64,000 bases of DNA from Kiritimatiellia bacterium (GCA_035353175.1 DAOPZC010000003.1:62473-126472); one strand, 5' to 3'. Positions 10,189 through 48,224 are shown, numbered from the stretch's first letter. The notes: generated by a model not told the origin, from the sequence alone. Made by a program: numbers and translations.

Positions 10189-10197
10189 CCGTCACCC

Positions 10198-14932: not shown

Positions 14933-14934
14933 CC

Positions 14935-14957: not shown

Positions 14958-14959
14958 CT

Positions 14960-16120: not shown

Positions 16121-16194
16121 AGCCGCTTGAACGGACGATCCGGCAACATATTGGGGCGTTTAACAGGAAATTAGAGCCGTCCCCGCCGGCCGCT

Positions 16195-18336: not shown

Positions 18337-18344
18337 AAGAACCT

Positions 18345-24072: not shown

Positions 24073-25703
24073 TTGGGCATCGCCGAATACCGCAGGTCGT
24101 CGAGCGTGTCGCCCTCCACCGGAAGCAGCGCGCAGGCGAACTGGCGCTGCCACTGCAGGTGGTCGTTGCGCACCAGCAGGCAATTCCAGCCTTGTTTGAG
24201 CGACGCCTTGCCGATCTCCTTGTTCTTGCCGCCGCGGTTGAGGTCGGCGACCAGACCCCGTTCGCCGTTGATCCAGACCACGAAGCCGTGTGTGGCCGAG
24301 AAGGTGCGGTGCGAAAGCTGGATCTGCACCGGGCGCGCTTTCGCGCTGTAGACCCAGCGCACGGCGTAGAGCACGTCGTTCTCGCTCCCGAAACACAGGC
24401 TGTAGGGCACGATTGAATTCGGATCGTCGCCGGCCGTGTAGTCGACGCACGGCGTGTTCACCTGCCAGCCATACGTTCTCTGACCATCCGTGAACGGTTC
24501 CAGAAAATGTTTCCCAGACACCAAATCAGCCTCCATGAACGGCACGCTGTTGGTCGGCACGTAGCCCCGCTGCGCGCTCCATGCGCCGCCGTTGTCGGGT
24601 CCGCAGAGCACGCGCCACGACGCCGGGATCTGCACAGTTTGGCGAACCGTCTCCTCGCCCACCTTGGCGACGACCGTCACCGGATTCTGCAGCCGCTCGG
24701 GCGCGCCGCAGAGCGTGAATGCCGCCTCGGTCTTGGTCACGGGCGACTCAGCCACGCTCCAGCCCTCCGGCACTTCGAGCGAGAAGGTCGGCACGCGCAG
24801 AGCCGTCGCCTCCTTGCCATCGTTCCAGAAGCATTCAAGCCGGTACGTTTGTTCCGCACGTTCGGCGGGACACCCCGGCTGCGGTTTGAACCAGGTGGTC
24901 ACCGACGGCTTGGCGGGCGCCAGCTTGGCGATCTCGGCGGCGATGCGCGCGTCGAACGCGGCGACCAGCTTGTCGTCCTGCAGCGCCGCGACCATGCCGC
25001 GCGCGATGGCGGCGTGCCCGAGCGGCTGCTGCGGATGCACCGTGTCCGGAATGACGTGATAATCCTGCCGGACCTTGCGGCAACGCGTCACGGCGCCGAA
25101 GACCGACGCCCCGGTCGCGGCGGTGCGGCACTTCTCTTCCTTGGCGAGCTCGTTCGCCAGTTGCGTCAGCCGGTCGCGCACACGGTTCTTGGGCGAAAGC
25201 GGGTCCTCGGTGAGCGGCGTGATCTCGCACAGCACGATCTCGCGCGGCGTGACGCGCGCGCGGATCGCCTTGACCAGCTCGCGGAGTTTCGCCTTCCAGG
25301 TCTGCAAGACCGCCTCGTCGTCCCGCATCGTCGGCCGCAGAATATCGTTCATGCCGAGCAGGATGAAGACGATGTCGCCGTGCCGGGCGAACGCCGTCCG
25401 GACGTCGAAGCCGCCGGTGTTGGCGGGCACGGACTGCGTACGGCTCTTGACCTCCAGGCTGTCCGTCCAGTCGAAGAGCGTGTTGCCGGAGAAGCCGAGG
25501 CCGATGACCTCGTAACCGGACGCAGGATAGGCCTTGTGCAGTTCATTCGTGAACTGATGATAATACCCCTGCGAACCCCCCACGGCTTGCGCCGTGATGC
25601 TGTCGCCCACGAAAATGATGCGGTCGTTCGGCTTGAGCAGCGAGTCCGCAAAACTTAGACTGGCCGCCAGCGCGGCACCCCATGCCACCCGATACACGTT
25701 CAT
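24069..25703 (-). CDS. secreted SGNH/GDSL hydrolase (esterase) fused to a ~330-aa C-terminal beta-rich domain
   Basis: Shine-Dalgarno GAGGGGAGA. Signal peptide, then block I IIFVGDSIT, block III (LGMNDI), block V (DTVHP). The long C-terminal extension has no recognised motif. Confidence 0.8.
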   Translation of the reverse strand: MNVYRVAWGAALAASLSFADSLLKPNDRIIFVGDSITAQAVGGSQGYYHQFTNELHKAYPASGYEVIGLGFSGNTLFDWTDSLEVKSRTQSVPANTGGFDVRTAFARHGDIVFILLGMNDILRPTMRDDEAVLQTWKAKLRELVKAIRARVTPREIVLCEITPLTEDPLSPKNRVRDRLTQLANELAKEEKCRTAATGASVFGAVTRCRKVRQDYHVIPDTVHPQQPLGHAAIARGMVAALQDDKLVAAFDARIAAEIAKLAPAKPSVTTWFKPQPGCPAERAEQTYRLECFWNDGKEATALRVPTFSLEVPEGWSVAESPVTKTEAAFTLCGAPERLQNPVTVVAKVGEETVRQTVQIPASWRVLCGPDNGGAWSAQRGYVPTNSVPFMEADLVSGKHFLEPFTDGQRTYGWQVNTPCVDYTAGDDPNSIVPYSLCFGSENDVLYAVRWVYSAKARPVQIQLSHRTFSATHGFVVWINGERGLVADLNRGGKNKEIGKASLKQGWNCLLVRNDHLQWQRQFACALLPVEGDTLDDLRYSAMPK

Positions 25704-25933
25704 TCGATTCTCCCCTCAGTCAGCACCTTTTGGCGTCTGTCAAAACGCAGTATAACATCTTTCAGCGGCTGGCGCGCTTGCCATTTTCCGCGAAAAAAGG
25801 TACCGCATTCCGCGTCCGCGAAATCTTGTTTGTTCATTGTAATCCCTTTCGTTCCCCTCACAAATAACCGTTGCGCATCCACTTGTCTTTGGCGTATCCT
25901 CAGACAGTTTTCAATCTATATCAAGGGGCTAAC

Positions 25934-27263: not shown

Positions 27264-30200
27264 TTATCTCAGCATCAGCACGGTTCCGTCGGTGAAGCGG
27301 AGCTTGACGTCGCCATCCGCCGTATAGAGAATGCGCCAGCGTTCATCCGGCAGGTTATGTGAGGCGAAAACGCCGCTTCGGGTGCCCGTGCAGGAGAGCA
27401 GTGTGTACGTCCGCTTGGTGTCGAGATCCGCCGGATTGACGATCGCAAGCGATGCGCCAGTCAGGTCGACGTTCCCGTGGACCGCCAGCAAGTCGCTGGA
27501 ACCGTCGGCCGCGACGTCAGCCGACAAGGTCCCGGAAAGCGCCAGGGCGGCCGCGATCGTGAGCGTGCCGAGCGCGCCGTCGCCGGCGGGGGCGAGGGTG
27601 CCGGTGACCGTCAGCGTGCCGTTGCTGACCAGGCCGCCGCCGCTGAGGCGGTCGAGGGCCTGCACGGAGCCGCCCAGATCGAGCGTCGCGCCGCCCGCGA
27701 CCTCGACGACGGAGGCGGGATCGAGCAGGTTGGTGACGACGTTTCCTTCTCCTCGGAGGGTCACCAGACTGCCGTCGCCGGGATCGGTGAAGGCCACGTA
27801 GTTCGCGATGTTGGTCTCGTTGCGGCCCAAGAAGTCGATGCCGAAGCCGAACACGCTTGTTTTCCACCACTCTCGATTGGCCACGATACCCGCGCCCCCG
27901 GTCCCGTTGTAGAAGCGGACATCAAACGCATGCGCGCCGGGCGACAGCGTGAAATTGCCGGTCTTGGGTGTCATCCAGCTGCCGTCATTGATGACGGTCG
28001 TATCGTCGATGCGCAAGAGTACGGCATCGTCGATGCTCTTGGCGAAGGTCCACGTCACGTTGGTCTCGCCGCGGTTCCAGATGCTGCCGGAATAAATGAT
28101 GGTGGTGTTCGTGGGCCAATCCGTTGTGCCCAGGTTCGCCATGCGGGTGCCGAGCTGTATGGCGGTGCACGGATTGGTGGCGGTCGAGGTCAGTCCCGCG
28201 CTTGTAACAAAGCCTTCGTACAGGCCCGGATCACGTTCCTCCAAACGGACAACGCCCCCGCCGATCACGATCGGCGCGGCGGAATTCAAGGTGGCGCCGA
28301 GGGTGAGCGTGCCGTCAGACGCCTTCGAGAGGCTGCTCCCGGTCAAGGTGCCGTTGACGATCATGCCGCCCGTAGCCGTAATCGCGCCATTGGTCAACGC
28401 GAGCCCGTTCAGATTGTAAATGCCGCCCGCCACCTTGACGGCCGCGTTTGTGGGCAGCGAGTCGGCATGCCCCGCGATCAGCGTGCCCGCGTTGATGGTC
28501 GTGACACCGCCGTAGGTGTTGGTGCCGCCCAGCGTGAGGACGCCGTTCCCATTCTTGGTGAGGCCACCCGCCGCCGAGTTCGGCGTCATCAGCGCCACGC
28601 CGGCCTGTCCGAGGGTGGTGTAGCCGCCGCCGCGCAACTCGACGGTGAGCGCGTCGTCGTACTTGTATCCGACGCCGGGGCTGGTGACCGTGATGCCGGT
28701 CAGCTGGCCGAAGGCCGGGCTGTCCTGATCCAGGCTCACGGTCGCAACGGCCGTCGCGCCGAAGCCGCTGCCGCCGGTGATCATCACGACGGGCGGGGCG
28801 ATGTACCCCGCGCCCGGATTGTAGACGCTGATCCAGCCGACGCCCAGTCCGGTCGGAGCGACCAGAGACTGGTTGAGCGTGAGGATCGCGTTGGTGGTGT
28901 CGATCACGGCGCCGCCGGGGTAAACGGTCGCGGCGGTCAGTCCCTGCATGAACGTCGCCGCATAGGCGGTGCCCGAATTGGCTTTGAGTGTGCCGCCGTT
29001 GAAATTGAAGAGCGACGGCGTGCCGGTGACGCCCGCGCGGATGCGGTTCGCCAACAGCGTGCCCGAATTCAGGTTGATGATAGACGCCAGGTTGCCGGCC
29101 GCGTTGGCCATGTTGAACCCCTTCGAGGTGCCATTGCATGCGGCGTCCATGAGCGCATTGGCTCCCAGCAGGTTGAGCACCGCCAACGATCCGTTGTTGG
29201 CGGCATAAGCCATGGTGGTGTCGTTGCCGGCGGACGGGCCTGCGAGCGTGCCGCCGTAGATGTTGGCCACGCCGTTGCCCTTCGACCAGCCCCAGAACAG
29301 CCAGTCGCCGGTGCAGACAGCGGAGGCGTCGGTGCCGAAAATTTCAAAGACCGCGTTGTTCTCGCCGTTCGCGGCCGTCCCGCCCGGCAGGCCGATGCGG
29401 CCGGAGCGCAGGGTGCCGCTGTTGAGCCGGTAGTAGCCGTAGCCGCCGTTGTGGCCGAGGTTCAGCCGGTCGCCGCCGGTGGGGTTGATCTCGACGGTGC
29501 TGTTGTTGTTCTGGTAAACCGCGCCGTTCGCGATTTGGTTTTGGGCCAGGATGATGCCGTTCAGCGTCAGATCGTCATTAATGAACACGCGGGCGCGGTC
29601 GCCGTTGCCGTTACCCACGTAAAGGATTTCCATGCGGGTGGGGCCGTCGACGGTCAGCGTGCCGCCCAGCGAGGTCGGCTGGACGACGGTGCGGCCGATG
29701 ATGTTCGAACTGCCGTTCGCCAGCGTGAGGCTGGCGCCGTTCACGACGCGCACTTCGCCGTATTGCGAGCTTCCCGTCGAGGTGGCCGTGGCGTTGGTAT
29801 TGAAGCCGCTCATCGTCAGCGTGTTCGTGCCGCGGAGGTAGAGCGTGAAACTGTCCTGCACGTTGGTGAGGGCGAAGGGACCCGACGAGGAGAGGTCGAT
29901 GTCCAAGATGGCGCTGTTGGCCGTGAAGACCGTGTTGCTGATGAGCGCCATGATCTGGTCAGCGTTCCAGCCGATGACGCCGTTGCCGGCTTCAACCCGC
30001 AGGTACTTGCCGGCCACGACGGTCACCGCGCCGGTCTCATAGCCGGGCAGCGAGCCGGGATTGTGCGCGTAAAGCGTGCTGTTGCTGACGATGGTGCCGC
30101 CGCTGTACGTGTTGTTCGTGCCGGTCAGGTGGAACACACAGGTGTCGCTGCCCGCCTTCACCAGCCTGCCGCTGCCGGAAATATCGCCCGCGAAGGTGGC

Positions 30201-33200
30201 CTGCGTGTCGTTGGCGCTCGTCAGGAAGGCCGTTCCGTTGAGCGACACAGGGCCGGCCCAGATATTCTGAAGAGTGCTGTTGCCGTAACGGGCATAGAAG
30301 CGGCCGAGGTCGTTCAGCACCAGGCTCCAGGCGACCGGAAGAGTCGCTTGATAGATGTCGAATGCGGCGTTGCCTTGCACCGTCACGGTATTGGACGCGT
30401 CGCCGCCGAGCGACGTGTTCACCTCGATAGAGAACGAGCCTTCCTGGATATCGATGTGTCCGGGGTTTCTGACGGGGACCGCCGTGAGACCGACCATGTT
30501 GGACCCGACCTTGGTCATCGTAAAACCGTTCATGTCGAAGAAAGGCGGCTTGGACGAGTCTGTGTTGCGGATGTCCCAGCGCGCGCTGCCGTGCTCGCCG
30601 CCGAAGGTCGCGTCTCCCGCGAGCGCCAGGTAGCGGAAAGCGTTGTATTGGGAGCGGGCGGACGAGTTGATGATCGCGCCACGGCCGTTCAGGCCGGTGC
30701 CGCTGACCATAAAGAGTTCGTCGCCGAAGTTGACCGCGTTGTCCGTGGTGCTGAAGCCCACGTCGAGCGTGCCACGGTTCGTGATGATCGTTCCCGCGAG
30801 CGTCGACCCCAAAGCCGCGTTGTTGCTGGGCATCAGGGTGCCTTCCCGGATGAGGGTCAGCCCGTTGTAGGTGTTGGCTGAACCCAGGACGATGCGGCTG
30901 CTGCCCTCCTTCACCAGCGCGCCGGCACCGCTGATCGCGCCCGCGAGGGTCTGCGTCGTCCCGTTCGCCGCCAGGACCAGTTCGCCCGCGTCGATTTGCG
31001 TGGCGCCGGTATAGGCGGTGGCGCCGTTCAGGCGCACGGCACCTTGGCCCAGCTTCACCAGCGAAGAGGCCGAGGTGTTGTTGGTGACGGGGGTGTTGAC
31101 CGACAAGGCGTTGTTGGCCGAATAGTTCGCGAGGGAGAGCGCTTCGCCGGCGGAACGCGGCATCAAGAGCCCGTCAGCCGTGTTGGTGCCGATGGTCAGG
31201 GAGGCCATGTATTCGCCGATGATCAGGCTGGAGGTCTTCAGGATCTGGCCGTTGGTCAGCCCGACTTTCGCATCCCACCCGGTGGCCTGCAGAAGTCCGC
31301 CGAGGCTGGTTTCGGTCTCGGCCTGGAGCGCGATGTCGCCTGTGGTCCCCTCCTCGGTGATCCGGGCGAAGGCGGTCGCATCGTTCGGAAGCACGGAAGG
31401 CCCCTTGGCCGAAATGTTGCTGTAGGCGGAATCGCCGGCCGGGATCACGCCCTGCGCGGCCGTGTAGGAGGCGAGGTTCGTGCCGTTGTGCAAAGCCCAC
31501 GGGCCGATCAGGGCGTTGTCGGCGGCGGGGGGCGTCGCAAACAGGATGCGGTTGCGGTTGTCTTCCGCACCCAGTCCGTTGCCGACGAAGTTCACGGATC
31601 CGCCGCCCGTGCGTGCCAGCGAGGCGAAGGTCAGCGTGGAGGTCTGGTCCGGATCGGCCTGCGAGGCCATCACGGCCGTGCCACCGCTGCCGACCGTCAG
31701 CGCGCCGGCGGTTTCACTGTAGCTGGCCGAACCGCCCGAATGCGTAAAGCTCAAGGTGCCGCCATTGAGCGTGACCGCGCCGCTGTCGCTCAACCGGTTG
31801 GCGTGATTGGCGGAAGGCGAGTTGCTGACGACGAACGTGCCGCCGCCCAGCGTCACCCCGCCGTTGATGGAACCGTTCTCGCCGCCGATCACCAGCGTCC
31901 CGTTGTTCGCGTAGGTGATCGCGTCATACGTGTTCGACCCCGAGAGCGTCCACGTTCCGGAGCCGGCCTCGCGGATGACCGGAAGCCCCATCGTCAGGGT
32001 CCCGTTGTCGATGGTGCCGCGGATCTCGCCGTCGCCGTTGCCCTGCAAGCGCAGGTTTCTCGCCGCGGTCTGGTCGCTCGTCATGTTTCCGGTGAAGAGC
32101 ACCTTGCCCGCGTTGGATTTGAAGATGGAGTCCCCGTCGCCGCCGGTGATGATGACCGGCCCTTGGATCGTATTGTTTCCGGCCTCGTTCAGGAGGGCGC
32201 CGAAGCGGCTGTTGCTTGTGCGGAAGGTGATTTCAGGCGGGATGGTCAAATCGCCGACCGTACCGTCGAAATGGATGTGCGGGTTGGCGTTGTTCGCGTT
32301 GTTGGCGGCTTGCGCGGTCTTGGGGCCGACGCCGAACGCGCCGCTGTTCCTGATGACCAGCGAGCCGTCCTCGACCACAACGTTGCCCTTATAGGTGTTG
32401 TTGCCGGAGAGAATCCAGGCGCCTGAGCCCGTCTTGAAAAGGTTGTTGGTTGAGTTGGCATCGTAATCGGAGATGGCGCCGGCGACCTCGCCGGTGCCCG
32501 ACGTGCTGCCATACAGGCGGAGCTGTTTGTTGCTGGCGACCGCGGCCGTGATGTCGCCCGTAAACTTGAGCAGCCCGTTTCCGGCCTGCTCGAGGTACGT
32601 TCCGCCGGTGGTGCCGCCCATGACGATGGCGCGCTCGGTGGTATCGCCGGTTCCGCGGTAGGTGAGCGTGCCGGTCGAGGTGCCGCTGCCGATGCGGATC
32701 GGCAAGTCGGCGGCCTCCGTGGGCGCGCCGAGCGCGCTGGGCTCGCCTGCATTCCGAAGCGAGTAGGCTTGGACCGCGCCGGCTTTGATCCAGGTGGCGC
32801 CCGCATAGGTGTTGGAGGCCGTCAGAATGAGGGTGCCGTTCCCCATCTTGGTGACCGGATGCGGACCGTTGAGGTCGCTGATCACGCCGCGGATGTAGCC
32901 GTTTCCGTTGGGAACGCCCAGCAAGCCGTCGTTCGCAGGATCGGAAATGTTGTTGGCAAGGTAGACAGGCCCGTTCCATGCCCCGTCCCAATCCAGCCGG
33001 AGTTGGCCGTAGGATTCGCCCGTGTTGCCGCCCTCCAGAATCAGGGTGCCGCTGTGGGGATAGGTCCCGGTGCCGACCATGAGGGTCGAATTGGTGCGCA
33101 CGACAAAGGTCGCGGCGGGGTTGTCCCTGCCGTTCATCATGGCTTTGCCGCCTGAGGCTGCCACGCCGATGTTCCAGACGCCGGTGAACTCCGAATAATC

Positions 33201-35924
33201 CGCGTTCAAATAGCTGGTCGTGCTGCCGGTCTGCAGCGTGACGTTGTTCGTGCCCGCGCCGCTGATCTTGGGGTAACTGAGGGAGACCGTGCTGACCGTC
33301 TTCATGTCGACCGTGCCGTTGTTGACGACCGGCCCCGCGCCAAGGGCGCTGACGTGGTTGGCGACGACCGTGCTCCCCGTGTTGACCGTGAGGCCGCCGC
33401 TGAAGGAGTTGGCACTTCCCAGCGTGAGCGCGCCGGTGCCGGTTTTGGTCAGGCTGCCGCCGCCCGAGAGCGAGCCGGTGAAGGTGGTGCTGGCGTCGTT
33501 CTTGCCGACGGTCAGCGCGATCGGTTTGTCCGCGTTGTCGACGAGGGTCAATCCCTGACTGCCGCTGAGGCCGCCGAACGTGAAGGCGTGCCCGGACACG
33601 CCGCTGTCAAACACGGGCGGCGTGCCGCCGAGGGTGACGGTGCTGTTCTGGAGCGCGTTGCCGTTGGCCAGCACGAGCGCTCCAGCGCTGATCGCGGTAT
33701 TGCCGGAGAAGGTGTTTTCGGCCGCGAGCGTCACGGCGCCGGTGCCGGCCTTGGCCAATGAAGAGGCGCCGGCGTTGTCCGCGATCACGGCGTTGACGGT
33801 GAGGCTGCTCGCGCCGTCGTTGGCGAGGGTCAGGTTTCCGCCCTCTGCGGCGGCCGTGAGGGTTCCGTCGCCCGCCGCCGCGCCGAGGGTGAGAGCGGCC
33901 TTGCCGGCCGGGACTGCGGCGGCGGAGGTGCGCAGCGTTTTGCCCGCCGTGTTCACGGTCGAGTCGAATACGGAGTTCTGGGCCAGCGAATTGATCGCCG
34001 TGGTGGCGTCGCTCAGCTCATTGTTGCCCGTCGTGCCTTCCGTCGTGATGCGGACGTTGCTGGACGGGTTGGAGATGATCGTGTCGCCGCGGGCCGCGAT
34101 GTCCGCGTAGGAAGCGCTCTCAGAGGCATAGACGCCGCGCGCGCTGCTGTAGGCGGCCAGGGCGGAGCCGTTGACCGTGGCCCAGCCGATCGGGCCGTCG
34201 CTTTGACCGTTGATGAAGATCCGGTTGCGGTCGCTCTCGCCGAGGCCGGCGCCCGTGAAGTCGACGGTGCCGGAGGTGCGCGTGAGGCCGCTGAGCGTGA
34301 GGGCGGAGGTGCGGCCCGCGGCGGCTTGCGAGGCAGAGAGGGTGTTCGGTCCGGAGACGAGCGCGACCGTGCCGGCCGTTTCGCTGTAGTCGGCCGCGCC
34401 GGCGGTGTGGGCGAAGCTCAGGGTGCCGCCGTTCATCGTGATGCTGCCGCTGTCCTTGACGCGGTTGGGCAGGTTGGCGTCGGGGGTGTTGCTGATTTGA
34501 AGCGTGCCGCCGGCATTGATCGTGATGCCGCTGGTGGAGAGGATCGAGCCGCTGGCGCCCTTGATAACGAGGGTTCCGCCGTCGACGAACGTGCCGCCGC
34601 CGTAGAGGTTCGCGCCTGAGAGCGCCCACAGGCCGGTGCCCTGCTTATAGACGGCAACATTCCCCGCGTTGTTCACGATGACGCCGCTGATCTCGGCCGT
34701 GCCGGCCGTCGAGCCCATCAGGGTGAGGCTCAGTCCGCTCGTGGTCGCGCAGACCGTGTTGGTGGTGAAAGCCAAGTGCCCGGCGCCGGCGTGCTCGATC
34801 CGCGCGTGGGAATTGAATTCGAGGGTGCGGTCGGTGGACTCGCCCGCGCCGATGTACTTCAGCTTGGGCCCGCCATCGTTGTTGCTGTTGAAGCGGATCT
34901 TGGAGCCCGCGCCGAGGTTACTGTCGGTGGCGCCGCGGTTGCCGAAACGGGCGGCGCTGATGGTGCCGGCGGCGTTCATCACGACGTATCCCGCGAAATC
35001 GTTGATGCCGTTGAGCTCGAACGTGCCCGCCCGGCCTGCCGGGGAATAGAGCTCGAAGCCGCCGGGGCCGGTGATGCGGCAGTTGATGGCGCAGGTGGCA
35101 TTGACGTCGTCCACGCGGTTGTCGGAGTAGCTCTCGGCACCGCCCGTGCTGAATTGGATCGCGCCGGTTCCCGTGATCGTACCGCCGGCCGCGCAGACGA
35201 TGTTGTCGCCGCCCAAGTTGGTGAACGTGGTGTAGCCTTGGCCGATGTCGAGCACGCTGCGGGGTCCGCCGTTCAGATACAGGATGCGGAGGACGTTCGT
35301 TCCGGAAAGCGTCGTGGTCCCCGAGTTGTTGACGCTGATGTCGAGGGTGGTCGCCCCCCCCTTTGTGATGTTGCCGAGGAGCTTGACCGGACCAACGCCG
35401 TTCACGTTGAGCGTTTTGCCGCCCGCCGTGCCGCCGCTCGCCGCGCCAAAAATATTCCCGTAAACGGTGAGGGCGTTGAACGCATGATCATTCTGGAAGG
35501 TGTAGCTGTTGCCGGTCGTGTCGGGGCCGAGCTGGATTCCGGCGGCGATGAAATGGCTGTTTTTCGAGTCGCTGAGGACCCGATAGTTTGCGCCGTGACG
35601 CGCGACGAGCGTCTGGCTGTTGACGGGCCAGTCGCCGATGTAGTAGGAAGGCACGCTCGTTCCCGAGAAATTGATGTAGCGGATGGCCGAAAGGCCCGCG
35701 AGGTTGATGTTGGTGCGGTTGTTTCCCGATCCGCTGAAGGTGGCCGTGTCTTCGCTGACGGGATAGGCCGCGTTGTTGTCGGACCAGTTGACTTTGTTTG
35801 TCCAGTACCCGCTGTTGGCGCCGCCGTCCCAGGTTCCGCTCGTCGCCCACACCTGACGACCGCACAGCATCATGAGCATTGCGGCGGAAAACGAGCCACA
35901 GGTGAATAACCGATTACGAGTCAT
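27264..35924 (-). CDS. giant (2886 aa) secreted repeat protein: autotransporter-associated beta-strand (PATR) repeats plus a PA14 domain; putative cell-surface adhesin
   Basis: Shine-Dalgarno AAGGAG sits 8 nt upstream of the ATG at 35924 (MTRNRLFTCGSFSAAMLMMLCGRQVWA). Dozens of ~30-aa G/T/N/S-rich repeats of the GGTL.....G.GTLTL.G.NTY.G.T.I..G.L type. A PA14-like segment near the C-terminus (GLYEGFVTSAGL...FTLSPGAHAFDVRFYNGTGGAG). There is an internal duplication of a ~150-aa block (see finding). Confidence 0.85.
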   Translation of the reverse strand: MTRNRLFTCGSFSAAMLMMLCGRQVWATSGTWDGGANSGYWTNKVNWSDNNAAYPVSEDTATFSGSGNNRTNINLAGLSAIRYINFSGTSVPSYYIGDWPVNSQTLVARHGANYRVLSDSKNSHFIAAGIQLGPDTTGNSYTFQNDHAFNALTVYGNIFGAASGGTAGGKTLNVNGVGPVKLLGNITKGGATTLDISVNNSGTTTLSGTNVLRILYLNGGPRSVLDIGQGYTTFTNLGGDNIVCAAGGTITGTGAIQFSTGGAESYSDNRVDDVNATCAINCRITGPGGFELYSPAGRAGTFELNGINDFAGYVVMNAAGTISAARFGNRGATDSNLGAGSKIRFNSNNDGGPKLKYIGAGESTDRTLEFNSHARIEHAGAGHLAFTTNTVCATTSGLSLTLMGSTAGTAEISGVIVNNAGNVAVYKQGTGLWALSGANLYGGGTFVDGGTLVIKGASGSILSTSGITINAGGTLQISNTPDANLPNRVKDSGSITMNGGTLSFAHTAGAADYSETAGTVALVSGPNTLSASQAAAGRTSALTLSGLTRTSGTVDFTGAGLGESDRNRIFINGQSDGPIGWATVNGSALAAYSSARGVYASESASYADIAARGDTIISNPSSNVRITTEGTTGNNELSDATTAINSLAQNSVFDSTVNTAGKTLRTSAAAVPAGKAALTLGAAAGDGTLTAAAEGGNLTLANDGASSLTVNAVIADNAGASSLAKAGTGAVTLAAENTFSGNTAISAGALVLANGNALQNSTVTLGGTPPVFDSGVSGHAFTFGGLSGSQGLTLVDNADKPIALTVGKNDASTTFTGSLSGGGSLTKTGTGALTLGSANSFSGGLTVNTGSTVVANHVSALGAGPVVNNGTVDMKTVSTVSLSYPKISGAGTNNVTLQTGSTTSYLNADYSEFTGVWNIGVAASGGKAMMNGRDNPAATFVVRTNSTLMVGTGTYPHSGTLILEGGNTGESYGQLRLDWDGAWNGPVYLANNISDPANDGLLGVPNGNGYIRGVISDLNGPHPVTKMGNGTLILTASNTYAGATWIKAGAVQAYSLRNAGEPSALGAPTEAADLPIRIGSGTSTGTLTYRGTGDTTERAIVMGGTTGGTYLEQAGNGLLKFTGDITAAVASNKQLRLYGSTSGTGEVAGAISDYDANSTNNLFKTGSGAWILSGNNTYKGNVVVEDGSLVIRNSGAFGVGPKTAQAANNANNANPHIHFDGTVGDLTIPPEITFRTSNSRFGALLNEAGNNTIQGPVIITGGDGDSIFKSNAGKVLFTGNMTSDQTAARNLRLQGNGDGEIRGTIDNGTLTMGLPVIREAGSGTWTLSGSNTYDAITYANNGTLVIGGENGSINGGVTLGGGTFVVSNSPSANHANRLSDSGAVTLNGGTLSFTHSGGSASYSETAGALTVGSGGTAVMASQADPDQTSTLTFASLARTGGGSVNFVGNGLGAEDNRNRILFATPPAADNALIGPWALHNGTNLASYTAAQGVIPAGDSAYSNISAKGPSVLPNDATAFARITEEGTTGDIALQAETETSLGGLLQATGWDAKVGLTNGQILKTSSLIIGEYMASLTIGTNTADGLLMPRSAGEALSLANYSANNALSVNTPVTNNTSASSLVKLGQGAVRLNGATAYTGATQIDAGELVLAANGTTQTLAGAISGAGALVKEGSSRIVLGSANTYNGLTLIREGTLMPSNNAALGSTLAGTIITNRGTLDVGFSTTDNAVNFGDELFMVSGTGLNGRGAIINSSARSQYNAFRYLALAGDATFGGEHGSARWDIRNTDSSKPPFFDMNGFTMTKVGSNMVGLTAVPVRNPGHIDIQEGSFSIEVNTSLGGDASNTVTVQGNAAFDIYQATLPVAWSLVLNDLGRFYARYGNSTLQNIWAGPVSLNGTAFLTSANDTQATFAGDISGSGRLVKAGSDTCVFHLTGTNNTYSGGTIVSNSTLYAHNPGSLPGYETGAVTVVAGKYLRVEAGNGVIGWNADQIMALISNTVFTANSAILDIDLSSSGPFALTNVQDSFTLYLRGTNTLTMSGFNTNATATSTGSSQYGEVRVVNGASLTLANGSSNIIGRTVVQPTSLGGTLTVDGPTRMEILYVGNGNGDRARVFINDDLTLNGIILAQNQIANGAVYQNNNSTVEINPTGGDRLNLGHNGGYGYYRLNSGTLRSGRIGLPGGTAANGENNAVFEIFGTDASAVCTGDWLFWGWSKGNGVANIYGGTLAGPSAGNDTTMAYAANNGSLAVLNLLGANALMDAACNGTSKGFNMANAAGNLASIINLNSGTLLANRIRAGVTGTPSLFNFNGGTLKANSGTAYAATFMQGLTAATVYPGGAVIDTTNAILTLNQSLVAPTGLGVGWISVYNPGAGYIAPPVVMITGGSGFGATAVATVSLDQDSPAFGQLTGITVTSPGVGYKYDDALTVELRGGGYTTLGQAGVALMTPNSAAGGLTKNGNGVLTLGGTNTYGGVTTINAGTLIAGHADSLPTNAAVKVAGGIYNLNGLALTNGAITATGGMIVNGTLTGSSLSKASDGTLTLGATLNSAAPIVIGGGVVRLEERDPGLYEGFVTSAGLTSTATNPCTAIQLGTRMANLGTTDWPTNTTIIYSGSIWNRGETNVTWTFAKSIDDAVLLRIDDTTVINDGSWMTPKTGNFTLSPGAHAFDVRFYNGTGGAGIVANREWWKTSVFGFGIDFLGRNETNIANYVAFTDPGDGSLVTLRGEGNVVTNLLDPASVVEVAGGATLDLGGSVQALDRLSGGGLVSNGTLTVTGTLAPAGDGALGTLTIAAALALSGTLSADVAADGSSDLLAVHGNVDLTGASLAIVNPADLDTKRTYTLLSCTGTRSGVFASHNLPDERWRILYTADGDVKLRFTDGTVLMLR

Positions 35925-36229
35925 AATAACACTCCTTGTTTGCCACACCGGAAGTTCGACCGAGAACCCAAATTTAAATAACCTAAGTTATGTTACATGC
36001 GGGTGCTAAGCGCGGTCAAGGCGCAATGCCCGAAAACGGGGAAAACTTTCGCGAAAAGACGGTCAGCCTTCGGGCGGTCGACGGTCTTTTGAACGTCGGC
36101 CGCGCGTTGGCCTTGCGTGACCGTTCATCACGCGGACGGGGCCGCCCGCCCCAGATGTTCCGCATACGCCACGCACGAACCTTGCCCCTCCCCGCCACCA
36201 ACCGGCGGCCTCCGTACCGCTCAAAACCG

Positions 36230-36259
36230 TTGACACGCTTTGTCGACCCGCCGCATACT
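36230..36259 (+). promoter_or_regulatory. candidate sigma70-like promoter for the LRR protein gene
   Basis: TTGACA, an 18-bp spacer, then CATACT, ~70 nt upstream of the ATG at 36330. This is the best -35/-10 match in the divergent 400-bp spacer. The assignment is inferential. Confidence 0.25.
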
Positions 36260-36329
36260 GATGCCGTTTGATGTCTTTCACATTTTTCGAGATGCGTCTC
36301 CATTTGCCCGTATCAAGAAAGGTGAAGCC

Positions 36330-38348
36330 ATGAAATCGGACGTCCGCATTCACGCGCCGCTGTTCTCCCTCGGCCTCGCGCTGGCCTTCGCGCCGTTCAC
36401 CTCCCGAGCCGATTTGACCCAGGGGGACTACACCTACACCGTCGCCAACGGCCAAGCGACCATCACGGGGTTCAGCACGGCGTACTCGGGCGCGTTGACG
36501 ATCACGAACCTGCTGGGCGGCTTCCCGGTCACCGCCATCCGCTACACGGCGTTCGCGACCTGTGCCGGCATCACCGGCGTCGTCATCCCGCCCGGCGTGG
36601 GCGACATCGGCGACCACGCGTTCTCGGCGTGCTCCGGCATGGCCGCTCTCACGATGCCCGACACCGTCACCAATCTCGGCAGCTACGCCCTCTACAATTG
36701 CACCGCCCTGACCAACGCCTCTCTTTCCGGCACCCTCGCCCGTATCGGCCAAGGCGCCTTCACGCACTGCGCCAGTCTGACCGACGTCGCCCTTCCAAAC
36801 AGCGTCAGCAGCCTCGGCTCCTCCGCGTTCTATTCCTGCACCCAGCTGGCAAGCATCACCCTCAGCACCAACATCGCCTGCATCGGAGAAGGAACCTTCG
36901 ACACCTGCACGAACCTGGCCAGCGTCACGATTCCCGCGGGGGCGCGCGAAATCGGGAAGATAGCCTTCAACAAGTGCTCCGCCCTGAAGAGCGTCGCGAT
37001 CGCCAGCACCGTCACGAACATCGGCGAAAGCGCTTTCGCCTTCTGCGTCAATCTGGGCGGCATCGTCCTGCCCGCCGGCGTGGCGGCCATCGGGGCATCG
37101 CCGTTCGCCTCGTGCACCACGCTGAGCAACATCACCGTGGTGGCGGCCAACCCGTACTACAGCAGCTCCGAAGGCGTGCTGTTCAACAAGGCCCAGACCG
37201 CGCTCATCCAATACCCCGCCGCCAAGGCCGGAACCTACGCCATCCCCGACGGCGTCACTGCCATCGGGAGCGCCGCCTTTGAGGGCGCCAACCTACTCAC
37301 GAGCATCACCCTCCCCGACAGCGCCACCGACATCGGGACCTACGCGTTCAGCCACTGCGCCACCCTCACCAACGCCGTCCTGGGGGCCAACGTCACAAAC
37401 ATCGGCGCCTGCGCCTTCTCGGCCTGCGCCTTCCTGCGGGCCATCGCGGTCCCGGACAGCGTCGTCCGCCTCGGCGACTCCGCGTTCGACGGCTGCGACC
37501 GCCTGGCCACGGCCGCGTTCGGCAGCAACGTCGTCAGCATCGGCGACAACGCGTTCCACCACTGCATCTCCCTGAAAGCCGTGGTTCTTCCCGCCAGCGT
37601 CGCCGACATCGGGGACGGCGCTTTCAACGACTGTACCTCGCTGACCAATATCGCGCTCGCTTACGGCGTCGCCAGTATCGGAAATCAGGCGTTCGCCCAC
37701 TGTACGGCGCTGACCCGCATGACGATCCCCGACAGCGTCACCAACCTCGGCGCCATGATGTTCCTCTACAGCTCCATGCTGACCAACGTCACGATCGGCG
37801 CGCAGGTCCCCGCCATCGGTCATTCCACCTTCGAGGGCTGCCTCGCCCTGACCAGCGTCACACTCGGCGCAGGGGTCACCCACATCGAGGAATGGGCCTT
37901 CTACGCCTGCACCGGCCTCACCCGGATCGTCATCCCCGGCAGCGTCACGTCCATTGCCAAAGGGGCGTTCGCCAACAGCACCGCCCTCGCGGGCGTCTGT
38001 TTCACGGGGGAACCGCCGGCCTTCGGCGCCTCGGTCTTCGACTCAACCTGCGCCACCCTCTATCACCTCCCGGCCTTTGCCGCCCAGTGGCCGGACACCT
38101 GTGCCGACCGGCCCACGCTCCTCTGGAACCCGCTCTTCACCCATGCCATCTACGCCGACGCCGCCTTCTCCTCCGCCATCGCCGGCACCACAAACATCCC
38201 CCTCACGGTCGAGGCCGCCACAAACCTATCTGCCGGCCTCTGGACGCCGCTCCTCACCGGCACCCTCGGCCCGGCGGGCTCGCTCGCCTTCAGCGACCCT
38301 TCCGCGACCAATCTCCCCTCGCGTTTCTACCGCATCGTCTGGCCTTAA
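36330..38348 (+). CDS. secreted BspA-type leucine-rich repeat protein
   Basis: Shine-Dalgarno AAAGGTGA; signal peptide. About 25 tandem ~23-aa repeats of the pattern IP.SVT.IG..AF..C..LT.V.I, as in BspA/Treponema-type LRR surface proteins. Confidence 0.8.
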   Translation: MKSDVRIHAPLFSLGLALAFAPFTSRADLTQGDYTYTVANGQATITGFSTAYSGALTITNLLGGFPVTAIRYTAFATCAGITGVVIPPGVGDIGDHAFSACSGMAALTMPDTVTNLGSYALYNCTALTNASLSGTLARIGQGAFTHCASLTDVALPNSVSSLGSSAFYSCTQLASITLSTNIACIGEGTFDTCTNLASVTIPAGAREIGKIAFNKCSALKSVAIASTVTNIGESAFAFCVNLGGIVLPAGVAAIGASPFASCTTLSNITVVAANPYYSSSEGVLFNKAQTALIQYPAAKAGTYAIPDGVTAIGSAAFEGANLLTSITLPDSATDIGTYAFSHCATLTNAVLGANVTNIGACAFSACAFLRAIAVPDSVVRLGDSAFDGCDRLATAAFGSNVVSIGDNAFHHCISLKAVVLPASVADIGDGAFNDCTSLTNIALAYGVASIGNQAFAHCTALTRMTIPDSVTNLGAMMFLYSSMLTNVTIGAQVPAIGHSTFEGCLALTSVTLGAGVTHIEEWAFYACTGLTRIVIPGSVTSIAKGAFANSTALAGVCFTGEPPAFGASVFDSTCATLYHLPAFAAQWPDTCADRPTLLWNPLFTHAIYADAAFSSAIAGTTNIPLTVEAATNLSAGLWTPLLTGTLGPAGSLAFSDPSATNLPSRFYRIVWP

Positions 38349-39869: not shown

Positions 39870-40093
39870 TCATTTCTCCTTCGTGGTTGAGCCCTGCGGT
39901 ATCCTAATCCGCAAACGAGACAGAGTATAACGGAAGGAAGAGAAAGAGGGTAATGAAAGTTGATCGCCCCGCCGTTCGCGTTTGATGGCCAGGGCACGTC
40001 AATCACCGTCCTGTCAAAAGGCGAAGACGACGATGACATCTGTTTGACCGATATTCGGCTCCATTCTACGAACGGCCCAGCGAGATTGGCACT

Positions 40094-40195
40094 TAGGAAT
40101 TATCTAGTTCCTGATCGTAATCATAATCGTAATCCTCTCACACCCGCAAATCGGGATTAAGATTATGAGAAAGATGAAGATTAGGATTAGAATCA
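40094..40195. repeat. AT-rich island with inverted pentamer repeats (TAATC x3 facing GATTA x4) plus a small AGGAA/TTCCT hairpin
   Basis: TAATC at 40118, 40124 and 40130; GATTA at 40155, 40161, 40178 and 40185; the arms are ~12/16 complementary. A hairpin AGGAA-ttatctag-TTCCT sits at 40095-40112. GC is ~32% against a ~64% background. The island lies in the 5' leader/promoter region of the GH109-like gene. Confidence 0.5.
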
Positions 40196-40228
40196 AGATT
40201 TCCGCGCCGACACCCTTTTATGTCCCCT

Positions 40229-45930: not shown

Positions 45931-47799
45931 TCAAAAGAGGAAGAATAGTGTGCCTGAAATGATCACTGCGACCCCGTTTCCGGCGGCGTCCAACTGGAGG
46001 TAGATGTTGTTGCCCCTGATCGCGCTCTTTCCCTCGCCCAGCGAGAGACCGGATACGGGTTTCCAGCGCCGGCCGCCGACCACCCGCTCCTGACCGGTCA
46101 AGAAGACGTTGAACAAATCCCGCATCTGCGTCTGGTCGAAACCCAAGACCGGTTCATAAAGCGCAATCGCCATGCCGTCAGTCAGCGCATCGTACCACAG
46201 GGCCACCTCGTCCAGACGGCCAATGAATTTTCCTTCGTTATTGAACTCAAGCGGGTTCGTGTTGCCAAATCCCGTGCCGTGGTTGTAAGTCTGGCTCAGC
46301 TTCAGCACCCCGTCCACAAACTTCTTTGTTGTTCCGTTTGCGGTTGTGCCGCTGCCGTTGTCATAGGCGACGACAACCACATGGTGCCAAGTGCCATCAA
46401 TCTCGTTGCCGGAGGAGAAAAGCCTGTTCTGGTTGAACAGACCGCCGCCGCCAGCCGTATCGTACCGGACTCCGATGTTGATACTGCTGCTGTCGCGGTC
46501 GACGAGCCACCCGTTGTGTACGGCGTTCTCGTCGCTTTTCCTGAGAAAGCGGGACCAGCTCGGGGTGTTGGTATACATTTTCACCCAAAAACTCAGCGTC
46601 ATGGCGTCGTTGACCGCCAGCGTCTGGCTGTTGGGCACGCTGATCTGGGCGAGAGTGTCGCCCCCCCCGAAGAAGGCCGCCGCTCGTCCGGTCCCGGTCG
46701 GGGTGTCATTGGTGAACGCCACGTTGGACTCGACCGTGCCGTCGTTGCCGAAGCCGGAACGGTCTGAGGCGTCCTCGCCGTCGAAGGTCCAGTAACCGAC
46801 GAGATCGACCGCGGTGGTGGCAAGGTTGGTCGAGGCCACGCCTTTGCCGGCGGCGTCAAGCTGCAGGTAGTATTCGTTGCGGTTGGTCCACACGAAGCTC
46901 TGACCCTCGCCCAACAGCAGGTTGCTTACCGCGTGCCATTGCCGCTCGCCAATCGTGGCCGGCACGCCGCTGGTGTAGACGTTGAACAGGGTCTGCATCT
47001 GCGTCACATCGTACCCGCAGATCGGGCGATAGAGCGCGGTCGCCATCCCGTGGTTCAGCGCCGTGTCCCAGACCGCCACGTCATCCATGAGACCATCATA
47101 CTCGCGGGCACCTTCTTGAAAGCTGCGGCCCATGATCAAGTCGGCGGTGTTATCAAATCCACCGGTGTGGAAATACGCGCCGTTGTTGACTGCGCGCACA
47201 CCGTTCAGCCAGACGTTGGCCTTCCCGTTATTCAAAGAGAAGACGATGTGGTTCCACGCGCCGTTCCAAGCCGAGCCGATGGCTGTCGATTGGTTGTTGG
47301 TGGCCGTGTCGATTCGGAGCACGGCGGTGGCGCCGGCATTGTTGCGCTGGATCTCGAACCCGTGCGAGCCCCCGTTATCCTTGTTGATGACGCGCAGCCA
47401 AGGGCTCGGGTCTGCCGCGTTCGCCTTCATCCAGAAGGACACGGTGACCGTTCCTCCGGTGAATGAAAGGGAATCGGCATGGGGGATCTGAACATACGAC
47501 CCGGTGTTGTCGACCCCGTTAAACGAAATCGAGCGCGTCGAGGGGATTGTCGCGGGCACATCGCCGGTGAAGACGGGGCCGTTGACCAGCGCCCCGTCGT
47601 TGCCGTAACCGGAACCGTCCGACGCGTCGTCGGTCTCGAAGGCCCAATAGCCGACAAGATCAGCCGCGGCTTGGCTTGCGGTGAGCAGTGTGAGGCAGAG
47701 AAGGCCGGCGACAGCCCTACACCCCGGCCCCTGATGCGCCTTCACGGCTTGGGAAGAGGAAGAGACCCTACACGCACTGTGGTGATGTCGTTCGAACAT
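45931..47799 (-). CDS. secreted protein with two tandem LamG/concanavalin-A-like lectin domains
   Basis: Shine-Dalgarno AAGGAAGGAG. Two ~280-aa repeats, each starting DLVGYW(A/T)F(E/D)(T/G)(D/E)DASD.SG.GNDG and containing ...FW(M/V)K...WNH.V... and ...DDVAVWD / DEVALWYDALT, the LamG (laminin-G/pentraxin-like) signature. Confidence 0.75.
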   Translation of the reverse strand: MFERHHHSACRVSSSSQAVKAHQGPGCRAVAGLLCLTLLTASQAAADLVGYWAFETDDASDGSGYGNDGALVNGPVFTGDVPATIPSTRSISFNGVDNTGSYVQIPHADSLSFTGGTVTVSFWMKANAADPSPWLRVINKDNGGSHGFEIQRNNAGATAVLRIDTATNNQSTAIGSAWNGAWNHIVFSLNNGKANVWLNGVRAVNNGAYFHTGGFDNTADLIMGRSFQEGAREYDGLMDDVAVWDTALNHGMATALYRPICGYDVTQMQTLFNVYTSGVPATIGERQWHAVSNLLLGEGQSFVWTNRNEYYLQLDAAGKGVASTNLATTAVDLVGYWTFDGEDASDRSGFGNDGTVESNVAFTNDTPTGTGRAAAFFGGGDTLAQISVPNSQTLAVNDAMTLSFWVKMYTNTPSWSRFLRKSDENAVHNGWLVDRDSSSINIGVRYDTAGGGGLFNQNRLFSSGNEIDGTWHHVVVVAYDNGSGTTANGTTKKFVDGVLKLSQTYNHGTGFGNTNPLEFNNEGKFIGRLDEVALWYDALTDGMAIALYEPVLGFDQTQMRDLFNVFLTGQERVVGGRRWKPVSGLSLGEGKSAIRGNNIYLQLDAAGNGVAVIISGTLFFLF

Positions 47800-48224
47800 T
47801 GCGATTACTCCTTCCTTAGTCCGTGCGTTCCGAACCTAATACATCGCCATTTTAAGGCTTCCGGCGTATGCCGTCAATGCTGGGGGTTGCTGAGGGTCGC
47901 GGCAGAGGGTTGCGAGGACGGGCGCATCCTTGAGTCAGGCGGCTGATGCCCCGTCCATAGGGAGTCGATCAAGATAAGCGTGTTGGAATAGGAGCATCGA
48001 AATCGGCATCGGGATCGAATACCTTGCGATTCAATCACGATAGGAACCACGCTGGACTGCTCAAAATGGACGATTCCGATCCCGATATCGATAGCGATTT
48101 GGAGGGAGAGAAGACTGTCGGCATGGGCTGGCTAAGGAAAGAGAGAGGACGGAGTTGCCGAAACCAGAAAACAGAAATCAGTTCAGGCGCATGGTCCTCG
48201 AACGCTGAGACGCGAAACCGGCAG

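Follow-up and report, generated by a model that had tools for sequence, protein, structure and literature searches.

Candidate C-terminal sorting elements on a giant PATR/PA14 protein and a neighbouring BspA-type LRR protein of a PVC bacterium

In type Va autotransporters, which include IcsA, SPATE-like serine proteases and ShdA, PATR repeats form part of a beta-helical passenger that precedes a C-terminal beta-barrel translocator. Giant PATR proteins of Verrucomicrobiota/Chthoniobacter possess a Sec signal peptide but no barrel; they combine a PATR solenoid, a PA14-like insert and an end-cap, and terminate in VPEP, approximately 17 hydrophobic residues and an Arg cluster, being sorted by exosortase. 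A PA14-fold lectin is also found in yeast Flo5/Epa, in MpIBP of Marinomonas primoryensis and in similar giant adhesins, where it is carried on a repetitive stalk; MpIBP, whose repeats are Big domains, is secreted as an RTX/type I substrate and has no Sec signal peptide. BspA of Tannerella forsythia and other LRR_5 proteins (4gt6, 4fs7, 4cp6, 6mlx) are built from repeats with a 23-aa period. Finally, the T9SS CTD, PEP-CTERM, LPXTG and the T1SS protease C-terminal motif are conserved C-terminal elements that occur on unrelated passengers.

The window analysed here, a stretch of 64,000 nucleotides, contains divergently transcribed genes for a giant PATR protein and a BspA-type LRR protein (Table 1). 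The host, judging by MAG labels, would be a PVC bacterium of either the Kiritimatiellia or the Lentisphaeria, the labels of the giant's relatives being in disagreement (Lentisphaeraceae/Lentisphaeria, Kiritimatiellia, Verrucomicrobia). We consider it probable that the two genes encode independently transcribed and independently evolving exoproteins of a glycan-degrading bacterium, and that the last seven residues of the giant are a candidate element directing its sorting to, or retention in, the envelope.

Table 1. Features of the locus, in window coordinates
Feature	Position	Strand	Remarks
Giant PATR/PA14 protein gene	27264..35924	-	2886 aa + stop codon; ORF and translation
Signal peptide of giant, aa 1-27	35844..35924	-	read from translation
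Internal duplication, copy 1, aa ~376-874	33303..34799	-	chunked self-BLASTP
Internal duplication, copy 2, aa ~1267-1722	30759..32126	-	chunked self-BLASTP
PA14-like lectin insert, aa ~2565-2725	27750..28232	-	fold match; DD at aa 2632-2633
C-terminal end-cap beta region, aa ~2736-2879	27288..27719	-	common to family; confident model
Heptapeptide tail GTVLMLR	27267..27287	-	translation; candidate sorting or retention tag
Divergent intergenic region, 405 bp	35925..36329	.	two separate sigma-70-like sites
BspA-type LRR protein gene	36330..38348	+	672 aa; signal peptide aa 1-27; LRR_5 solenoid aa ~60-580
"RFYR" CTD, ~83-aa beta-sandwich ending RFYRIVWP	38097..38345	+	seven strands in model
Laminin_G_3 protein, unrelated to giant, ending SGTLFFLF	45931..47835	-	tail in same register

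Architecture of the giant protein

The giant gene starts with ATG at position 35924, with AAGGAG located 7 nt upstream, and several public MAGs contain a gene call with the identical 2886-aa product. The N-terminus, MTRNRLFTCGSFSAAMLMMLCGRQVWA with cleavage before TSG, reads as a Sec-type signal peptide composed of a basic n-region, a hydrophobic core and a VWA cleavage motif; the strong Shine-Dalgarno sequence, signal peptide and length given in a preliminary description of this DNA are all borne out. It is not a canonical lipobox. Profiles PF12951 of Pfam (E=3e-36, 123 bits against a cut-off of 27, in 10 stretches) and TIGR02601 of NCBIfam (E=4e-39, 132 bits against a cut-off of 19.85) place the giant among the PATR repeat proteins, with multiple repeats of ~30 aa above the curated cut-off. 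The expected TIGR02601 match was thus obtained, but the characterization of the protein as made almost entirely of such repeats was too generous, as there are ~10 units of 30 aa, spaced within solenoid sequence rich in G, T, A, N and S. Similarly, an internal duplication does exist, but instead of two ~150-aa blocks at residues 440-590 and 1130-1280 it involves the considerably longer segments listed in Table 1, which are 40-47% identical (E down to 2e-41) at an offset of ~890 aa, NGGTLSF motifs being located at aa 498 and aa 1387. L011, a full-length, 52%-identical paralog from the same MAG, shares this duplication, which is absent in relatives of ~2000 aa.

The proposed carbohydrate-binding insert near the C-terminus is recognizable by fold and not by profile: Pfam PA14 (PF07691) gives no match at E<=10, either to the whole protein or to the isolated 201-aa segment, while one relative, P0023, scores for this family and another, L056, falls short with 21.7 bits against a cut-off of 24. 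An AlphaFold model of the last 435 aa (pLDDT 78.7), generated from a shallow alignment of 15 sequences only, displays solenoid, PA14 and end-cap, and in a Foldseek search its top matches are PA14 domains (E~1e-4, prob 1.0), namely those of MpIBP, RsgI, anthrax PA, KmBglI and Flo5 (entries 6xac, 5j6y, 6qe7, 4h2a, 3ac0 and 2xjv). On the strength of this model, the insert is a PA14 fold. The D2632-D2633 pair, a DcisD-type Ca2+/sugar-site motif, is invariant in the family alignment. The insert is probably a Ca2+-dependent carbohydrate-binding module, and the giant would bind glycans through this predicted lectin. The end-cap that follows is modelled with pLDDT ~90 over most of its extent and has no Pfam or NCBIfam match.

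The giant is one paralog of a multi-copy family. With its last 110 aa as query, phmmer retrieves 374 clusters (defined at 50% identity) at E<=1e-3, in matches that run to the protein C-terminus. Relatives of the C-terminal 435 aa are encoded at 72 loci in 42 genomes, with several loci per MAG and tandem giants at two of the loci (L013, L042); they include a same-species ortholog, L010, with 95% identity over the whole protein.

These elements suggest a protein that would be exported via Sec and fold as a long PATR-type beta-solenoid stalk, lengthened by an old internal tandem duplication of ~890 aa. The PA14-fold module would be displayed ~300 aa from the C-terminus and followed by the conserved end-cap domain and a free heptapeptide. 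Most likely, such a protein would bind glycans as an adhesin or capture protein associated with the surface or matrix.

The C-terminal heptapeptide

The question of how such a protein could be anchored was raised by its lack of a recognizable C-terminal sorting signal, be it PEP-CTERM, an autotransporter barrel or a T9SS CTD, and Pfam and NCBIfam searches indeed detect none, even with the tail scanned alone at E<=10. The 12-stranded barrel of type Va systems (Pfam Autotransporter) is found neither on the whole giant nor on its C-terminal segments at E<=10. With respect to type Vb, no Pfam family matches the first 420 aa at E<=10, so that the TpsA signature is absent, and there is no adjacent TpsB gene, the neighbours of the giant being hydrolases and oxidoreductases. 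PEP-CTERM yields no NCBIfam match on the giant and no regex match in the window, and Por_Secre_tail/TIGR04183 of T9SS matches the tails of neither the giant nor the LRR protein (Pfam/NCBIfam, E<=10). A T1SS RTX adhesin was also discarded as a class for the giant, in view of its Sec-type signal peptide and of RTX repeats going undetected (no HemolysinCabind match in Pfam). These searches support the conclusion that both proteins lack a catalogued sorting signal.

What the giant does have, at its C-terminus (...LRFTDGTVLMLR), is a heptapeptide of the pattern G-T-phi-phi-x-phi-[R/K]-COOH, where phi is a hydrophobic residue, and which provides a concrete candidate answer to the anchoring question. 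Among 148 family representatives (clusters at <=50% identity), 140 have G at -7 from the C-terminus, 132 of these also being hydrophobic at -5, -4 and -2; 82 representatives terminate in R or K, and roughly one third in L, Q, M or F. At the C-terminus, the strict motif is seen in 34 cases against 0.0096 expected, a value derived from its seven internal occurrences in 325,716 residues. Outside the family, 9 of 366 ORFs end in the relaxed pattern, 8 of them with R/K, where an estimated ~0.3 would be expected (the relaxed pattern alone gives 2.7, which is multiplied by an assumed R/K frequency of ~0.1), and a control set of LRR proteins shows the pattern in 0 of 120. The unrelated passengers that bear the tail include LamG, NHL/SGL, legume lectin and DUF2341/PA14 proteins, in several of which a Pro/Gly-rich linker leads into it (GPEPPPGGTLMTLK, AWPDIGSGTLIRLK, VASPGTFLMIR), and a signal-peptide-like N-terminus is present in 46 of the 54 long proteins that bear the tail. 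It is of note that most examples of the tail sit on homologous end-caps, so that independent contexts are few, ~6-9.

The position of the tail is also informative. In the alignment it starts directly past the last end-cap strand, a slot that in eight Verrucomicrobiota/Chthoniobacter homologs is occupied by PEP-CTERM (VPEP, TM and RRRR). The window itself offers a second case in its Laminin_G_3 protein, whose relatives end in SGTLFTLF (92% identity) and PGTRISVL (82% identity), while PEP-CTERM terminates one remote homolog, and a CTD resembling that of the LRR protein two more; this LamG family hence shows the same three-way exchange between tail, PEP-CTERM and RFYR-like CTD. The heptapeptide is conserved, fixed in register, positionally equivalent to PEP-CTERM and modular, and may be an undescribed sorting tag that, rather than any neighbour gene, would steer sorting or retention in the envelope as a functional analogue of the PEP-CTERM of the Verrucomicrobiota homologs. 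The exosortase mechanism is not simply transferable to it, because a stretch of five hydrophobic residues is too short to cross a membrane. A search of ~1 Mb of flanking DNA yielded no linked machinery gene.

A more tentative explanation is that the heptapeptide just forms the final structural beta-strand of the end-cap, without a sorting role, and that the giant reaches the medium or matrix through a general pathway, for example type II secretion. A G turn followed by alternating hydrophobics is beta-strand-like and could pair with the preceding V-x-L-x-[FY] strand, and the variable terminal residue and unlinked machinery would be compatible with this. In the AlphaFold model, the last ~9 residues are unstructured (pLDDT ~52) beside a domain of ~90, with neighbouring strands modelled confidently, which speaks against a strand, but the shallowness of the alignment weakens the point. 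A hydrophobic terminal strand could be structural, and AlphaFold may have missed it due to the 15-sequence alignment. On the other hand, NHL/SGL and LamG proteins devoid of the end-cap carry this tail behind Pro/Gly linkers, with its register relative to the stop codon unchanged, and the Verrucomicrobiota homologs retain the end-cap with PEP-CTERM in place of the tail; since they swap one for the other, the end-cap does not need the tail strand.

Two further readings derive the tail from known elements. In the first, which is unlikely, it is a beta-signal-like strand that docks the passenger by beta-augmentation on an Omp85/BamA-type or separate barrel, a "split autotransporter" which, if true, would explain PATR passengers without a barrel of their own. 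The beta-signal of outer membrane proteins (BAM/SAM) reads polar-x-G-x-x-phi-x-phi, and bacterial versions normally finish in an aromatic residue at the extreme C-terminus. G at -7 and hydrophobics at -4 and -2 fit G-x-x-phi-x-phi with a single residue added, genuine autotransporter passengers (IcsA 5ke1, serine protease 8e7f) are matched by the PATR region, and the giant has a Sec signal peptide and lacks a barrel. However, the tail ends in R or K instead of an aromatic, a barrel gene is not linked, non-solenoid passengers carry the tail as well, and the likeness is to a short, low-information pattern. In the second, to which we give hardly any weight, the tail is a PEP-CTERM that has decayed by loss of PEP and collapse of the TM helix, leaving G-[ST]-phi-phi-x-phi and a single basic residue, and that now persists by descent with no function. 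PEP-CTERM homologs do read VPEP-G-[ST]-L-V-M-L-M...RRRR (e.g. L076), and one tagged protein reads GPEPPPGGTLMTLK; yet exact length and register in 140 of the 148 clusters, and in unrelated families, are not what a remnant devoid of function would have preserved, and purifying selection on the tail is already suggested.

The LRR protein and the gene pair

The product of the divergent gene is an ordinary BspA/LRR_5 surface protein, recognized both by profile (LRR_5, PF13306, E=1.6e-164, 539 bits against a cut-off of 27.7), as anticipated, and by fold, its AlphaFold model being a solenoid (pLDDT 93.5) whose top Foldseek matches are the LRR_5-type surface proteins 4gt6, 4fs7, PcpA (4cp6) and TpLRR (6mlx). 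The 672 aa and BspA-like nature reported initially hold, but the 23-aa period gives ~20 repeats rather than ~25. The solenoid is followed by the RFYR CTD, which has no match in Pfam, NCBIfam or PDB sequences. As ...FSDPxWTNYPxRFYRxRSP, this module ends 56 of the 120 best LRR homologs, and in other families it swaps with the heptapeptide tail and PEP-CTERM. We regard it as another candidate module by which the LRR protein may be sorted or anchored; each of the two exoproteins, presumably located at the surface and binding glycans or surfaces, would therefore carry its own candidate, undescribed C-terminal sorting element.

The preliminary description had joined the two genes in a surface adhesion module, a reading to be abandoned if the LRR gene proved not to be co-conserved with PATR giants. 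In its favour, both products are exported, adhesin-like repeat proteins, as their signal peptides and PATR and LRR_5 matches confirm, and the genes lie divergently across 405 bp, a layout kept in the same-species locus L010. Nevertheless, tblastn of the LRR protein against the 72 giant-relative loci finds it in L010 only, 32 of these loci holding at least the 2.4 kb upstream of the gene start in which it could have been revealed; the paralog L011 has no LRR neighbour, and none of three LRR homologs on long contigs lies beside a PATR gene, their context consisting of tandem LRR arrays or unrelated genes. All-vs-all clustering of 447 flank ORFs yields no co-conserved neighbour family. The pair consequently lacks synteny, and across these loci the divergent arrangement is not conserved beyond the species. 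The intergenic region, without an Rfam match, had been taken for a shared promoter; the divergent gap is there, but a consensus scan locates two sigma-70-like sites (0.1 expected, on consensus evidence alone) at 35990-36019 (-) and 36230-36259 (+), back-to-back and ~210 bp apart rather than overlapping. Moreover, both genes are flanked by convergent genes, and therefore neither has an operon partner. A co-regulated, functionally coupled adhesion module with a shared divergent promoter region is accordingly very unlikely.

Comparison with known systems

The PEP-CTERM giants are true homologs of the window giant (L049, L055, L062, L073-L076 and L081, 32-43% identity to its C-terminal region) and share its architecture up to the end-cap, where the giant and its Kiritimatiellia- and Lentisphaerae-labelled relatives carry a 7-residue tail too short for a TM helix. 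With type Va autotransporters the giant shares PATR and the beta-helical passenger, as reflected in profile matches to PDB 5ke1 and 8e7f and a weak NCBIfam match to ShdA, but it has no barrel, is 2-3 times longer and contains the PA14 insert. Its best structural PA14 matches are 6xac, 5j6y and 2xjv, with the DD pair conserved; unlike MpIBP, it combines a Sec signal peptide with a PATR solenoid, and RTX repeats go undetected by Pfam. The LRR protein has the LRR_5 period of BspA and its relatives, whereas its RFYR beta-sandwich belongs neither to the T9SS CTDs nor to the choline-binding domains or LPXTG anchors. Lastly, the heptapeptide has no TM segment, ~80-aa domain or known processing enzyme and consists of seven residues at the protein end which, like the established C-terminal sorting signals, are paired with a Sec signal peptide and interchangeable with other signals.

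Gene layout and the proposed adhesion module

The window is ordinary chromosomal DNA (GC about 65%) in which housekeeping genes (ribosome recycling factor, an amino-acid kinase family protein, an EPSP-synthase-family enzyme, a ZIP transporter) lie among many glycan-related ones, including GH42 with a CBM, a GH39-like protein, a GDSL esterase, several LamG proteins and GFO/IDH oxidoreductases. The gene of the giant PATR/PA14 protein, whose ATG is preceded 7 nt upstream by AAGGAG, and that of the divergent BspA-type LRR protein are separated by 405 bp, a spacer in which each gene has a separate sigma-70-like match of its own, the two being some 210 bp apart, and in which an Rfam scan matched no family. 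Public gene calling on several MAGs and metagenome assemblies yields both products unchanged, beside the same neighbouring genes, and the convergent gene downstream of each indicates that neither has an operon partner.

Features of the window and, where a locus number is given, of contigs recovered by the genome scan (coordinates of the respective stretch)
Feature	Position	Strand	Description
Giant ORF	27264-35924	-	2886 aa, counted from ATG at 35924
LRR ORF	36330-38348	+	672 aa
RFYR CTD	38097-38345	+	C-terminal beta-sandwich of LRR protein, ~83 aa, ends RFYRIVWP
Laminin_G_3 protein	45931-47835	-	634 aa, ends SGTLFFLF
ORF lacking a Pfam match	10562-14092	+	1176 aa, GC3 coding-like
Radical-SAM ORF (longest) / GDSL esterase ORF	23329-24450 / 24069-25715	-	overlap of ~380 bp
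GC dip	40001-42000		0.58 vs 0.64-0.69 background
GFO/IDH oxidoreductase gene	40229-41413		within the GC dip
Protein matching PF18582	56490-58877	-	795 aa
L011, paralog of giant	2549-11302		full-length, 52% identical
L013, tandem giants	2-11338 and 11815-21333
L042, tandem giants	4847-11941 and 12182-19543
L034, tail-bearing ORF	14454-15626	-	390 aa, ends DGTVFTIR
L036, PEP-CTERM protein	7690-10074	-	canonical, VPEP...RRRRRR

Other features of the window are recorded here for completeness. The ORF lacking a Pfam match sits in the most GC-rich stretch (0.72 at 12-14 kb), and the radical-SAM product is shorter in public gene calls (247 aa), beginning right after a 544-aa esterase. The 795-aa protein matches the hydrazine synthase alpha middle domain (E=2e-23), which is unexpected outside anammox bacteria, and the match probably reflects a shared beta-propeller or haem-less domain.

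The preliminary description had proposed that the giant and the LRR protein form a surface adhesion module. A genome scan with the C-terminal 435 aa of the giant (9-sequence alignment) yielded 72 loci in 42 genomes; tblastn located the LRR protein in a single one, the same-species ortholog L010 (95% identity across the whole giant), with at least 2.4 kb of DNA upstream of the gene start being included in 32 of the 72. The full-length paralog, encoded by the MAG that also holds the ortholog, has no LRR neighbour, and when all 447 non-overlapping flank ORFs were clustered, no family other than the PATR one recurred at more than 4 loci. Three LRR homologs on long contigs were located in tandem LRR arrays or unrelated contexts. 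The LRR gene is thus not co-conserved with PATR giants, and the two are independent exoprotein genes.

Architecture of the giant and LRR proteins

PATR and TIGR02601 are the sole families matched in the giant by Pfam and NCBIfam, in about ten units. The profile of its C-terminal region matches solved autotransporter passengers (IcsA and a serine protease) through PATR rungs only, and PDB sequence searches likewise returned PATR matches only. Pfam and NCBIfam scans of isolated segments (the N-terminal 420 aa, the middle blocks, the PA14 segment, the 187-aa and 37-aa tails, and the LRR CTD) detected nothing besides PATR at E<=10. A single weak NCBIfam match, to the streptococcal N-terminal motif motif_MiiA (scoring 10.4 bits where the cut-off is 24), was dismissed as noise, and classification as a lipoprotein was rejected, the signal peptide reading MML|C with no canonical lipobox.

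The internal duplication noted earlier is real, but had been misplaced: it relates aa ~376-874 to ~1267-1722 at 40-47% identity, and becomes visible with chunked self-BLAST queries, while whole-protein self-BLAST yields the identity match only. Given its presence in the full-length paralog and its absence from ~2000-aa relatives, it is an old tandem duplication of a ~890-aa block, by which the stalk was lengthened. The family is multi-copy, the ortholog's own MAG encoding the paralog and two MAGs carrying two giants each in tandem. The PA14-like insert, in turn, has no Pfam HMM match, but is supported at the level of fold at aa ~2565-2725, since an AlphaFold model covering the C-terminal 435 aa (15 sequences, pLDDT 78.7) has its best PDB matches in PA14 domains (E about 1e-4, probability 1.0), namely those of the MpIBP sugar-binding module, RsgI, anthrax protective antigen, the K. 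marxianus beta-glucosidase insert and Flo5. A DD pair at aa 2632-2633 is invariant across the family, at what we take to be the position of the DcisD Ca2+/sugar motif of PA14 lectins. Within this multi-copy family of Sec-exported solenoid proteins bearing a PA14-fold lectin, the giant represents one paralog; most plausibly it is a surface- or matrix-associated glycan binder, a role that fits the glycan-degrading gene content nearby. Kiritimatiellia and other PVC bacteria play a major part in the breakdown of complex and sulfated glycans.

The LRR protein matches LRR_5 at E=1.6e-164, with a repeat period of 23 aa that corresponds to about 20 repeats. Its AlphaFold model (pLDDT 93.5) displays an LRR solenoid and after it, at aa ~590-672, a beta-sandwich of seven strands, and its top PDB fold matches are LRR_5-type surface proteins (4gt6, 4fs7, PcpA and TpLRR), as obtained with the whole model, in which the solenoid dominates. 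With more than 7000 homologs at E<=1e-10, the best only 30-47% identical, it is an unexceptional representative of a very large family. The C-terminal sandwich, here called the RFYR CTD, finds no sequence match in Pfam, NCBIfam or the PDB; the same ~85-aa module closes 56 of the 120 best LRR homologs, with the consensus ...VVEACTNLAxPxWxPxxTNTLTxGxxxFSDPxWTNxPxRFYRxRSP. A second flavour, ...RFLRLKVxx, also exists.

A conserved heptapeptide at the C-terminus

The absence of a recognisable sorting signal from the giant, pointed out in the preliminary description, was borne out: no beta-barrel, TPS domain, RTX repeat, PEP-CTERM, T9SS CTD or other catalogued sorting domain was found with Pfam and NCBIfam, even when the tail was scanned alone at E<=10. 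The protein ends in GTVLMLR, and all 14 of the first homologs stop at the same residue, in the form ...G-T-[LV]-x-x-phi-[RK], where phi is hydrophobic. Among the 72 loci, those relatives that are labelled Kiritimatiellia, Lentisphaerae or "Verrucomicrobia bacterium" have C-termini that read GTLIRLR, GTVMVLR, GGSVMLLK, GFILLIR and similar. A phmmer search of 1.84 billion representatives, with the C-terminal 110 aa as query, gave 374 clusters (E<=1e-3), in nearly all of which the match lies at the extreme C-terminus; in the 148 representatives retrieved, G occupies position -7 in 140 and is followed by T in 106, 132 are also hydrophobic at -5, -4 and -2, 82 terminate in R or K, and PEP-CTERM occurs in none. 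Among the locus ORFs, C-terminal copies of the strict motif number 34, against 0.0096 expected from its 7 internal occurrences in 325,716 residues. A crude hydropathy test identified signal-peptide-like N-termini in 46 of 54 long tail-bearing proteins; the tail-bearing ORF of L034, whose N-terminus looks by eye like that of an anti-sigma factor and not like a signal peptide, is a possible exception.

Eight homologs (Verrucomicrobiota, Chthoniobacter, Verrucomicrobiaceae) end instead in a canonical VPEP, hydrophobic helix and RRRR, and alignment places the start of both kinds of terminus straight after the same final strand of the end-cap, the beta region that precedes the tail. Descent of the heptapeptide from a decayed PEP-CTERM is a weak explanation. 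That it is purely a structural terminal strand is a serious rival to a sorting role; in the AlphaFold model the last ~9 residues are unstructured beside a confident end-cap. Resemblance to a beta-signal, in the form G-x-x-phi-x-phi, is a weak alternative.

The tail also occurs beyond the family of the giant, in 9 of 366 non-family flank ORFs, 8 of them with terminal R/K where the estimated expectation is ~0.3 (the 2.7 of the relaxed pattern multiplied by an R/K frequency assumed to be ~0.1), and the relaxed pattern is found in none of 120 proteins of an LRR control set. These ORFs include NHL/SGL propeller, LamG and legume-lectin proteins and a 5052-aa Lentisphaerae protein, several having a Pro/Gly linker before the tail. 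Within the window, the Laminin_G_3 protein ends in the G(-7)-T-phi-phi-x-phi-x register of the giant, which its metagenome relatives keep (SGTLFTLF, 92%; PGTRISVL, 82%), while among its remote homologs one ends in PEP-CTERM and two in an RFYR-like CTD. The giant's homolog at L058 ends in an RFLRLKVTAP-type domain. As its variants take the place of the heptapeptide or PEP-CTERM in both the PATR and LamG families, the RFYR CTD behaves as a third interchangeable C-terminal module.

The PEP-CTERM protein of L036 belongs to a Kiritimatiellae-labelled MAG that also encodes tail-bearing proteins; the two kinds of terminus may therefore coexist in one genome, and need not be strictly lineage-exclusive. 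Labels of near-identical or related contigs (L010-L081) disagree, ranging over Lentisphaeraceae, Kiritimatiellia, Verrucomicrobia bacterium and even Akkermansia sp. and Pyramidobacter sp., so that statements on taxa are approximate.

Possible roles of the C-terminal modules

We tentatively prefer the hypothesis that the giant's missing element for sorting or retention is the heptapeptide, on the grounds of its conserved register, its equivalence in position to PEP-CTERM, its occurrence as a module on unrelated passengers and its restriction to proteins with signal peptides. Against it, the independent contexts of the tail are few, and seven residues are too short for a membrane helix; no sorting machinery linked to the tail was found in the locus flanks. 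A broader and no more probable proposal is that exoproteins of Kiritimatiellia/Lentisphaeria could carry in the heptapeptide a C-terminal tag for sorting or retention that has no TM segment and has not been described before, with the RFYR CTD possibly a second signal; each would be read by envelope machinery, would functionally replace PEP-CTERM/exosortase in these lineages and would mark a definable surface or secreted glycan-binding proteome.

What is at stake is how very large lectin-like proteins are displayed or released in PVC members that lack PEP-CTERM, barrel and T9SS signals. If the tail is a true sorting signal, sequence alone would suffice to list the tagged proteome, phylogenetic profiling for the cognate machinery would gain a starting point, and a minimal tag would become available for surface-display experiments; if it is not, the locus holds merely two ordinary adjoining adhesin-like genes. 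Neither C-terminus was described in a targeted literature search, which was limited and is not proof of novelty. In comparison with known systems, the giant and LRR proteins are new members of known families, and their C-terminal arrangement is a new variant.
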